Part shown: positions 13,704-19,864 of the stretch, piece by piece
Layout of the letters: each line of letters begins with the position of its first letter
Position numbering within the stretch: the first letter of the stretch is position 1
Assembly: GCF_003018255.1 (NCBI RefSeq)
Contig: NZ_CP027440.1
Source of the DNA: Escherichia coli
GTDB lineage: Bacteria > Pseudomonadota > Gammaproteobacteria > Enterobacterales > Enterobacteriaceae
Length of the DNA stretch: 64,000 nt
Reading direction: 5' to 3' (one strand)
Notes under the pieces: model-generated
The model's database searches: none
Seen by the model: only the letters and a program-made list of their open reading frames with translations
Told to the model about the DNA's origin: nothing
Made by a program: the position numbers and the translations under genes

Positions 13704-14411
13704 ATGAATACCCAACGAAAATACGGGAGAACCTGGCATTATCCTTTCTCCCCCGGCACCACCAGCGATGACCGCATTAATGCCGATTACTGGCAGGATT
13801 TACAGGCCATCACGCAATTGGTGCACACAGAAAAACTCGACGGTGAAAATAACTGCCTTAACCGCTACGGCGTGTTTGCCCGTTCCCATGCCGCGCCTAC
13901 GCAGTCGGCATGGACCTATAAAATTCGCCAACGCTGGCAACTGCTGAAAAACGATCTCGGCGATCTGGAGTTGTTTGGTGAAAATCTTTATGCCGTGCAT
14001 TCGATTGAATATCGCGCCCTGGAGCAGGATTTTTATCTGTTTGCCGTTCGCTGCCAGGATATGTGGCTGAGCTGGGAAGAGGTGCAGTTTTACGCCGCTC
14101 TGTTTGATTTCCCCTGCGTTCCCGAAATCTCCGGCCCGCAACCGGGGAATGATGAAAAAAGCTGGCAACGTGATTTTCTGGCGCTGACCAATGCGCGCGG
14201 CGCGTTCGATCCCTGGGATACGCAAACCGGGCAACCCTGTACGCTGGAAGGCATTGTCAGCAGGAATCGTGATGCGTTTTCCGTCGCTGACTTTTCGCAT
14301 AACGTCTTCAAGTATGTGCGCAAAAATCATGTCAAAATCACCGTCCACTGGAAACGACACTGGCAACGGGCGCGGATGGCCCATGAGTTCGATTATGGAG
14401 AACAGTCATGA
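13704..14411 (+). CDS. putative ATP-dependent polynucleotide (RNA) ligase-like nucleotidyltransferase
   Basis: 235-aa ORF; motif I KLDGEN (K44, nt 13833-13850), motif III LFGEN (about residue 91), motif IV EGIVSR (182-187), motif [10 protein letters not shown] (203-211), in ligase order and Rnl2-like spacing; call rests on motif reading only. Confidence 0.62.
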
Positions 14412-15520
14412 TTTGGCAGCTTACCGACGACAAACGCTGGTCGGCGCTACGTCAGCGTTTTAGCTGGGTTGAGGAGATGCATCACACGCCACAAGACCCG
14501 GAGCATCATGGTGAAGGTGACGTCGGCGTGCATACCGAAATGGTGCTGAACGCCCTCGTTACTCAGCCAGAATTCCAGCAACTCCCCGCTCAACAGCAGG
14601 AAGTTTTATGGGCGGCGGCGTTATTGCATGATGTTGAAAAGCGCAGCACTACCGTGCAGGAAAACGGACGTATTCAGTCGCCTGGCCATGCTCGTCGGGG
14701 CGAACTGACGGCCCGACAAATTTTATGGCGCGATATCCCAACGCCGTTCGTGCTACGCGAGCAAATTGTTGCGCTGGTGCGTCTGCATGGGTTACCGCTA
14801 TGGTTACTGGAACGTCCGGAACCGGAGCGTTTGCTGCTCACGGCTGCAATGCGCATCGACACGCGTCTGCTCGCTTTGCTTGCTCGTGCCGATCTGCTTG
14901 GTCGCCAAAGCCCGGATCAGCAATCAATGCTGGAACGCATCGATCTGTTCGAGCTGTTTTGCCATGAGCAACAATGCTGGGGAAAAATGCGCCCGTTCGT
15001 TTCTGATTCCGCACGCTGGCACTACCTGACTCATGAGCAAAGTTCTCCTGATTTTGTTCCCTGGGAGGCTGAACCTTTTGAGGTTATTTTGCTGTGTGGC
15101 TTACCGGGTATGGGCAAAGATCGCTATATCAGTGAACAGTGCCAGGGAATGGACGTTATCAGCCTTGATGATATGCGGCGGCGAATCAATGCCAGTCCGG
15201 ACGACAAAACCGCCACCGGGCGTATTGTGCAACAGGCAAAAGAAGAGGCGCGCGTTTTTTTACGCCAGAAAAAGCCGTTCATCTGGAATGCAACGAACAT
15301 TACCCGCCAGCTGCGCAGCCAGCTCATCAGTCTGTTTACGGCTTACGGCGCACGAGTAAAAATCGTTTATCTGGAAGTGCCATGGGCGCAATGGAAGCAG
15401 CAAAATGCCAGACGCGAGTATGCAGTTCCTGAAGCGGTCGTGATGCGGATGGCCTCAAGGCTGGAAGTTCCTCAACCTGATGAAGCACATAGCGTGGAAT
15501 ATCGGATGACTGACAGGTAA
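14408..15520 (+). CDS. putative bifunctional HD-domain phosphoesterase / P-loop polynucleotide kinase (HD-Pnk-like end-healing enzyme)
   Basis: 370-aa ORF whose ATG overlaps upstream stop (ATGA); N-terminal His cluster H33-H34, H42 and HD dyad H74-D75; C-terminal Walker A-like GLPGMGKD (nt 15098-15121); domain assignment by motif only. Confidence 0.6.
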
Positions 15521-15570: not shown

Positions 15571-16086
15571 CTAAATGTGCAGTTCCTGCAACTTCTCTTT
15601 CGGCAGCGCCAGTTCTTCGTTGCTGTTGATGCGCACGTCACGTTCCAGAATGCTACGCGCAATATCCTGCGCTTCCTGCAACGAGTGCATCTGGTAAGTG
15701 CCACACTGGTAGACGTTCAGTTCCGGGATCTGATTCTGATCCTGCACTTTCAGCACGTCTTCCATTGCCGCTTTCCAGGCATCAGCAACACGCTGCTCAT
15801 CTGGCGTACCAATCAGACTCATATAAAAACCGGTGCGGCAGCCCATTGGCGAGATATCGATAATCTCTACACCATTACCGTTAAGATGGTTACGCATAAA
15901 ACCAGCAAACAGGTGCTCCAGGGTATGGATCCCTCTTTCTGGCATCACTTCTTTGTTCGGCACGCAGAAGCGCAGATCGAACACGGTGATTGCGTCGCCA
16001 TGCGGGGTGTTCATTGTTTTCGCCACCCGAACTGCAGGCGCTTCCATCCGGGTATGATCGACTGTGAAGCTATCTAACAACGGCAT
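15571..16086 (-). CDS. luxS: S-ribosylhomocysteine lyase (autoinducer-2 synthase)
   Basis: 171-aa ORF; recognised as LuxS (HTLEHL metal-binding motif). Confidence 0.95.
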
Positions 16087-16154
16087 TTAGCCACCTCCGG
16101 TAATTTTTTTTTAAAATTTTCTGAACTCTTTCTTCCCAGGCGAGTCTGAGTATA

Positions 16155-16227
16155 TGAAAGACGCGCATTTGTTATCATCATCCCTGAATTCAGAGATGAA
16201 ATTTTGGCCACTCACGAGTGGCCTTTT
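16155..16227 (+). ncRNA. micA: MicA (SraD) small regulatory RNA
   Basis: Matches remembered MicA sequence GAAAGACGCGCAUUUGUUAUCAUCAUCCCUGAAUUCAGAGAUGAAAUUUUGGCCACUCACGAGUGGCCUUUUU; divergent from luxS; 3' hairpin plus U-run. Confidence 0.85.
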
Positions 16228-16236
16228 TCTTTTCTG

Positions 16237-17820
<1,584 letters not shown>

Positions 17821-19137: not shown

Positions 19138-19214
19138 TGGTGCATCCGGGAGGATTCGAACCTCCGACCGCTCGGTTCGTAGCCGAGTACTCTATCCAGC
19201 TGAGCTACGGATGC
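19138..19214 (-). tRNA. argQ: tRNA-Arg (anticodon ACG)
   Basis: 77 nt; reverse complement matches remembered E. coli tRNA-Arg(ACG) incl. CCA; gene name by position is tentative. Confidence 0.9.
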
Positions 19215-19277
19215 ATTGGGAAAATTTATTTTACTGCTGATATTGATATCGCTACTAAAGCCATATCAAGTAAGAGA

Positions 19278-19354
19278 TGGTGCATCCGGGAGGATTCGAA
19301 CCTCCGACCGCTCGGTTCGTAGCCGAGTACTCTATCCAGCTGAGCTACGGATGC
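19278..19354 (-). tRNA. argZ: tRNA-Arg (anticodon ACG)
   Basis: Identical 77-nt copy; name by position tentative. Confidence 0.9.
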
Positions 19355-19416
19355 ATCGGGAAATTTATTTTACTGCTGATATTGATACCGCTACTAAAGC
19401 CATATCAAGTAAGAGA

Positions 19417-19493
19417 TGGTGCATCCGGGAGGATTCGAACCTCCGACCGCTCGGTTCGTAGCCGAGTACTCTATCCAGCTGAGCTACGGATGC
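19417..19493 (-). tRNA. argY: tRNA-Arg (anticodon ACG)
   Basis: Identical 77-nt copy; name by position tentative. Confidence 0.9.
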
Positions 19494-19557
19494 ATCTGGA
19501 AACTTACTTTACTGCAGATTTTTTGATACCGCTACTAAAGCCGTATCAAGTAAGAGA

Positions 19558-19691
19558 TGGTGCATCCGGGAGGATTACTCGCCTTGCGGCTCGCCCTTCG
19601 GGCCGTTGCTAAAGCAACGTTATCCTCCCTGGTGCCTGCGGTTATTACCGCCACCTCTTCCATACCTTCATCGCTGAAGGTACGTAGAATA
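19558..19691 (-). repeat. tRNA-Arg 3'-end-derived hairpin repeat (pseudo-tRNA fragment), copy 2
   Basis: Starts with TGGTGCATCCGGGAGGATT then diverges; same inverted-repeat core (cgcccttcgggcc ... atcctccc) as copy 1. Confidence 0.7.
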
Positions 19692-19768
19692 TGGTGCATC
19701 CGGGAGGATTCGAACCTCCGACCGCTCGGTTCGTAGCCGAGTACTCTATCCAGCTGAGCTACGGATGC
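19692..19768 (-). tRNA. argV: tRNA-Arg (anticodon ACG)
   Basis: Identical 77-nt copy; name by position tentative. Confidence 0.9.
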
Positions 19769-19771
19769 AAA

Positions 19772-19864
19772 TGGCGGTGAGGCGGGGATTCGAACCCCGG
19801 ATGCAGCTTTTGACCGCATACTCCCTTAGCAGGGGAGCGCCTTCAGCCTCTCGGCCACCTCACC
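19772..19864 (-). tRNA. serV: tRNA-Ser (anticodon GCU)
   Basis: 93 nt; reverse complement matches remembered tRNA-Ser(GCU) with long variable arm and CCA. Confidence 0.88.

Follow-up and report, generated by a model that had tools for sequence, protein, structure and literature searches.

A micA small RNA gene in the interval between luxS and gshA of an Escherichia coli genome

The short interval between luxS and gshA in the 64-kb stretch of Escherichia coli DNA analysed here (hereafter referred to as the window) raises the question of whether it harbours an RNA gene of its own and, if so, whether that RNA serves the regulation of envelope mRNAs or that of the adjacent luxS gene. An earlier note, made from the letters alone, had assigned the segment 16155-16227 to the small regulatory RNA MicA. 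MicA is one of the well-characterised components of the sigma-E response to envelope stress.

At Rfam gathering thresholds, the MicA model (RF00078) matched positions 16156-16227 of the plus strand with a score of 83.9 bits, twice the gathering score of 41 (E=1.4e-11). The match covered model positions 1-75 of 75, with no truncation, and was the only MicA match in the whole 64 kb. The sequence from 16156 to 16228 (plus strand), GAAAGACGCGCATTTGTTATCATCATCCCTGAATTCAGAGATGAAATTTTGGCCACTCACGAGTGGCCTTTTT, is identical at 73/73 nt to micA of E. coli K-12 (b4442), which is listed in the MG1655 record as an ncRNA of 73 nt at 2814802-2814874 ("small regulatory RNA MicA"), with luxS (b2687) on one side and gshA (b2688) on the other. 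Alignment over the whole intergenic region showed that, beginning at the -35 box, the window matches K-12 without a difference across the terminator and into gshA, and the 331 bp around micA were found at an identity of at least 95% in 5423 of 5426 complete E. coli genomes, every time on the chromosome. The window is accordingly a piece of an E. coli chromosome. The full-length covariance-model match, the complete identity to a characterised gene and the conserved synteny described below place this assignment far beyond chance. The plus strand of 16156-16228 is thus almost certainly E. coli micA, encoding an Hfq-dependent small RNA of about 72 nt that is driven by sigma-E and represses envelope mRNAs, and the identification made in the earlier note holds; no feature of the sequence speaks against it. 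The present analysis established the identity and anatomy of the gene, its promoter motif, its conservation and synteny, the covariation of its structure and its complementarity to ompA. Its dependence on sigma-E and on Hfq, the repression of its targets and the processing of luxS mRNA by RNase III come from the literature. The finding is a re-discovery of a textbook small RNA gene that has already been fully described. The coordinates of the features are collected in Table 1.

Table 1. Features of the micA locus, in window coordinates
Feature	Position	Strand	Basis
luxS coding sequence (S-ribosylhomocysteine lyase), divergent from micA	15571..16086	-	ORF; RefSeq annotation of matching genomes
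AT-rich tract preceding the -35 box, AATTTTTTTTTAAAATTTT, UP-element-like; on the minus strand, part of the luxS leader	16102..16120	+	sequence; PMC1851643
Sigma-E-type promoter: -35 GAACTC (16123-16128), 16-nt spacer, -10 TCTGA (16145-16149), 6-nt discriminator GTATAT	16123..16149	+	pattern scan, footprint, published geometry
micA gene (MicA/SraD small RNA, 72-73 nt)	16156..16228	+	RF00078 match; 100% identity to K-12 b4442
5' target-pairing region, predicted single-stranded, MicA nt 8-24	16163..16179	+	duplex prediction with ompA; unpaired in Rfam consensus
Stem-loop 1 (CAUC-C-CUG / CAG-A-GAUG)	16179..16198	+	minimum free energy fold, Rfam consensus, homolog pairing
A/U-rich linker AAAUUUU between the hairpins	16199..16205	+	sequence; published Hfq-binding site (PMC4618604)
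Rho-independent terminator: stem GGCCACU/AGUGGCC (16206-16223), loop CACG, T-run TTTTTCTTTT	16206..16233	+	terminator scan
gshA coding sequence (glutamate-cysteine ligase), convergent with micA; stop codon TGA at 16237-16239	16237..17793	-	ORF; RefSeq annotation
Site homologous to the published luxS P1 promoter and start (16418)	16418..16457	-	PMC2956633; K-12 identity; activity in this strain presumed

The boundaries of the gene required a small correction. The 3' end lies at 16227 in the Rfam match and at 16228 in the RefSeq equivalent, so that the end of the segment first proposed coincides with that of Rfam, but its start lay one base too far in the 5' direction: base 16155 is a T, and the mapped +1 of MicA is the G at 16156, around which the plus strand reads TCTGAACTCTTTCTTCCCAGGCGAGTCTGAGTATAT followed by GAAAGACGCGCATTTGTTATCATCATCCCTGAATTCAGAGATGAAATTTTGGCCACTCACGAGTGGCCTTTTTCTTTTCTGTCA. 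The flanking ORFs, of 171 and 518 aa, are named luxS and gshA in the matching RefSeq genomes. Exactly 150 bp (16087-16236) separate the luxS start codon (16086) from the gshA stop codon, as the earlier note had counted, and 69 bp separate the luxS coding sequence from the +1 of MicA, with no overlap. The divergent arrangement claimed for micA and luxS was also recovered, micA lying on the strand opposite to both neighbours, as in K-12 and in every homologous locus for which this could be tested (see below).

The anticipated sigma-E promoter was found upstream of the gene, in the form GAACTC-N16-TCTGA. The pattern GAACTY-N15-17-TCNRA has a single match on the two strands of the 64 kb (16123-16149, plus strand), and the G at +1 directly follows the 6-nt discriminator GTATAT. 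As about one chance match to this pattern is expected per 64-kb window, the evidence for the promoter lies in the placement of the motif: the estimated chance of its falling within a few bases of the right distance, on the right strand, is about 1 x 4/128,000 = 3e-5. In an alignment anchored on +1 of 119 sequences (118 Enterobacterales-type loci among the matches listed, plus the window), the -35 core (G/A)AAC(T/C) and the -10 element GTCT(G/T)A were fixed relative to +1, with a variable spacer between them, and the two boxes constitute a phylogenetic footprint. The geometry agrees with the published description of the micA promoter, in which the spacer measures 16 bp and the discriminator 6 bp, the C of the -10 box is invariant and an AT-rich element lies upstream (PMC1851643). 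Transcription of micA is sigma-E-dependent in K-12, the sequence of which is identical to that of the window (PMC1851643).

We then considered the conservation of the locus beyond E. coli. The first 28 nt of MicA recurred without any mismatch in over 120 species-representative genomes among the matches listed, in genera including Yersinia, Serratia, Pantoea, Erwinia, Edwardsiella, Hafnia, Rahnella, Tatumella and Sodalis, although the homolog set was gathered with this exact 28-nt 5' seed, and the invariance of the 5' end is therefore partly by construction. The order luxS/micA/gshA was found by tblastn in 113/113 loci for which sufficient flanking DNA was available on either side (among the matches listed), with luxS upstream, the 3' end of gshA downstream and both on the strand opposite to micA. 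Locus L120 seemed to depart from this order, but only through a split-alignment artefact. Across the loci listed, the median distance was 72 nt from the luxS ATG to the +1 of MicA and 84 nt from this +1 to the last codon of gshA.

The conserved 5' stretch includes a region of complementarity to ompA. The window contains no ompA gene, and the first 25 nt of MicA were tested against the 5' leader of K-12 ompA. In the predicted duplex (-23.1 kcal/mol), MicA nt 8-11 and 13-24 pair with ompA positions -21 to -6 (GAUGAUAACGAGGCGC), across the Shine-Dalgarno sequence; shuffled 25-mers gave a mean of -13.7 +/- 2.4 kcal/mol, and only 1/2000 equalled the value for MicA. With full-length MicA, the prediction against the ompA leader was a long-looped structure, and 17/500 shuffles were equally good. 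In the established model, MicA, together with Hfq, occludes the ribosome-binding site of ompA and promotes decay of the mRNA, further direct targets including ompX, lamB and phoPQ (PMC4618604). The predicted ompA duplex fits this model. On this basis, envelope stress or the stationary phase would activate sigma-E, and RNA polymerase would start at G 16156 and stop at the GGCCACU hairpin with its U-run. The unstructured nt 8-24 of the resulting RNA, with Hfq, would pair with the ribosome-binding regions of ompA, ompX, lamB, phoPQ and more, and this pairing would block translation and accelerate mRNA decay, lowering the outer-membrane-protein load. MicA would also pair perfectly with long luxS leaders, leading to processing by RNase III, with an unclear consequence for the LuxS protein.

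The last of these steps bears on the alternative that the main role of MicA is cis-antisense control of luxS (AI-2 synthase), through leader pairing or transcriptional interference, with the regulation of omp mRNAs secondary. In K-12, the sigma-S-dependent luxS promoter P1 starts transcription at a G located at -332 from the AUG, and its transcripts traverse all of micA (PMC2956633). This position corresponds to 16418 in the window, a G on the minus strand, inside gshA, and the segment 16397-16480, which covers the P1 promoter, is identical to that of K-12. We infer from this identity that P1 may also be active in this strain, in which case its luxS transcripts would be fully antisense to micA. 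The earlier note had described MicA as antisense to the luxS 5' region, which stands for the long luxS leaders mapped in K-12 but not for the luxS coding sequence, 69 bp away. The overlap with MicA is limited to about 14-15 nt in a shorter luxS species (PMC2956633). The inclusion of the whole of micA in the P1 transcript, the retention of the arrangement in all testable loci among the matches listed and the requirement of one luxS mRNA species for both MicA and RNase III (PMC2956633) all speak for an action on luxS. However, MicA left the level of LuxS protein unchanged (PMC2956633), and a review grades the effect on luxS as unclear (PMC4618604). Moreover, overlap alone gives perfect complementarity without accounting for an identical 28-nt start in so many species (in a seed-selected set), the invariant 5' stretch includes the ompA-complementary region, and a promoter of the sigma-E type responds to an envelope-stress signal rather than to a quorum signal. 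We consider it unlikely that control of luxS is the main role of MicA, although cis-antisense action on luxS may be an additional function.

Two weak sigma-70-like sequences, each matching at 9/12 positions, were also noted in this region and rejected. The first (16149-16178, minus strand) overlaps the 5' end of MicA and implies a start at about 16142, which misfits the published luxS 5' end (about 16169-16170); the second lies at 16088-16117 on the plus strand. The two matches are probably due to chance.

Upstream of its -35 box, the micA promoter has an AT-rich tract, an element conserved at this position (PMC1851643), which lies just upstream of the luxS Shine-Dalgarno sequence when read on the minus strand. 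It contains a homopolymer (16104-16112) that is T9 in the window, within T9A4, as against T7A5 in K-12 and T8A4 in strain 2014C-3338; the closest genomes have T8. None of the 5426 complete E. coli genomes matched the 331-bp query at 100%; the best match was 99.7% identical, with one indel. The T9 run may be a true difference in length or an error in the sequencing of the homopolymer. If it is real, run length could displace the UP-like element with respect to the -35 box of micA, and the luxS leader could change just upstream of its Shine-Dalgarno sequence. That the length of the run tunes divergent micA and luxS expression between strains nevertheless strikes us as very improbable.

The RNA itself is predicted to fold with an open 5' region that is followed by stem-loop 1 (nt 24-43), the AAAUUUU linker and a terminator hairpin (nt 51-68), with a minimum free energy of -20.5 kcal/mol (z = -2.9 against shuffles), in agreement with the Rfam consensus. 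The seven pairs of stem-loop 1 were paired in 98.7% of cases across 76 homologs, with compensatory change in three pairs, and the seven pairs of the terminator stem in 99.4% (among the matches listed). The innermost terminator pair was A-U in 66 of the homologs listed, U-A in six and C-G in one. Taken together, the 14 pairs were standard in 99.1% of cases (76 distinct homologs, among the matches listed), and four displayed changes on both sides; in a control in which the 3' partners were slid by 1-3 columns, 29-52% of cells paired. The covariation score was reached by 0/500 shuffles. The covariation of the stems is real, but modest, because 9 of the 14 pairs never vary. The Hfq site of MicA has been placed between its two stem-loops (PMC4618604) and, by this published description, the AAAUUUU linker is the Hfq-binding site; both the linker and the 3' U-tail are present in the MicA of the window.

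A terminator scan of 15900-16500 identified one terminator-like site, on the plus strand, consisting of the hairpin 16206-16223 followed by TTTTTCTTTT. This site contains the GGCC stem and U-run (GGCCACT/AGTGGCC) that the earlier note had described at the end of the segment, and its T-run stops at 16228, 8 bp short of the gshA stop codon, in agreement with the description of the terminator as abutting the gshA 3' end. The same hairpin might suggest that the segment is just the terminator of gshA, on the minus strand, together with the luxS leader, with no separate RNA gene: it lies 13 bp beyond the gshA stop codon and also folds on the minus strand (-16.3 kcal/mol). On that strand, however, it is followed by AAAAUUUCAUCU rather than by a U-run, and the scan of the same interval called zero minus-strand terminators. 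This explanation would also leave the full-length Rfam match, the sigma-E promoter at a fixed distance and the invariant 28 nt unaccounted for, and the RNA has been detected in K-12, which has an identical sequence, on published Northern blots (PMC1851643). We regard it as hardly credible, although the MicA hairpin may contribute in part to the formation of the gshA 3' end. Least plausible of all, to the point of being negligible, is a small protein encoded by a 48-aa ORF on the plus strand (16154-16300), which does have an ATG start overlapping the MicA 5' end, but this ATG (16154) lies 2 nt upstream of +1 and hence outside the transcript, has no Shine-Dalgarno sequence ahead of it and opens a frame within which transcription terminates (about 16228), and conservation is RNA-like (invariant blocks, loop indels and paired covariation) rather than codon-periodic.

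The identification of the segment as micA is relevant to annotation only, with no new biology, as the gene is often omitted from PGAP-annotated E. coli genomes. In the closest E. coli genomes, for example NZ_CP027452.1 (4088-4236), the PGAP/RefSeq annotation has no ncRNA between luxS and gshA, and the micA sequence is identical to that of K-12. The absence of micA from such annotations is an annotation omission and not evidence of absence of the gene. In the design of luxS or gshA deletions in this strain, it should be borne in mind that these 150 bp are common to micA, the micA promoter and the long luxS leader.

Several other features of the window were recorded. A two-gene cassette (13704-15520, plus strand) lies between emrB and luxS; it is absent from K-12 and was found in 999/5426 complete E. 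coli genomes. The product of its first gene is a member of the RNA ligase family of 235 aa (Pfam RNA_ligase, 3.5e-28), and this gene overlaps the second by 4 bp. The product of the second, 370 aa long, has a kinase-like AAA_33 domain at its C-terminus (3.5e-32), and no Pfam match was found in its first 225 or so residues. Judging by these domains, the cassette looks like an RNA-repair-type accessory module (ligase plus kinase). The segment 7419-7496 (plus strand) matched naRNA4 (RF02564, nucleoid-associated ncRNA 4/CssrE) with 60.0 bits, barely over the gathering score of 59.5; this family is derived from REP elements. Finally, a tRNA cluster at 19141-19864 (minus strand) contains four identical 74-nt tRNAs (tRNA-Arg in the matching genomes) and a longer one (tRNA-Ser). 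The cluster is located between yqaB and csrA, downstream of the former and upstream of the latter, in the ordinary arrangement also seen in K-12, and we take it to be the argQ/Z/Y/V and serV cluster of K-12.

Among known systems, the closest is MicA of K-12 itself (SraD, b4442, RF00078), with which the locus of the window shares the 73-nt RNA, the sigma-E boxes, the spacer, the discriminator, the terminator, and the neighbours luxS and gshA with their orientation. The only nearby difference is the T-run upstream of the -35 box (T7A5 in K-12 versus T9A4 in the window); farther away, the strain of the window carries the two-gene insertion between emrB and luxS, which K-12 lacks. RybB of E. coli and Salmonella resembles MicA in its sigma-E promoter, Hfq dependence, 5' seed and repression of omp mRNAs (PMC4618604), but is unrelated in sequence and locus, and the 64-kb window contained no Rfam match to RybB. 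VrrA of Vibrio cholerae differs from MicA in its length (140 nt), in not stringently needing Hfq, and in its family and locus, and is a functional analogue of MicA rather than a homologue.
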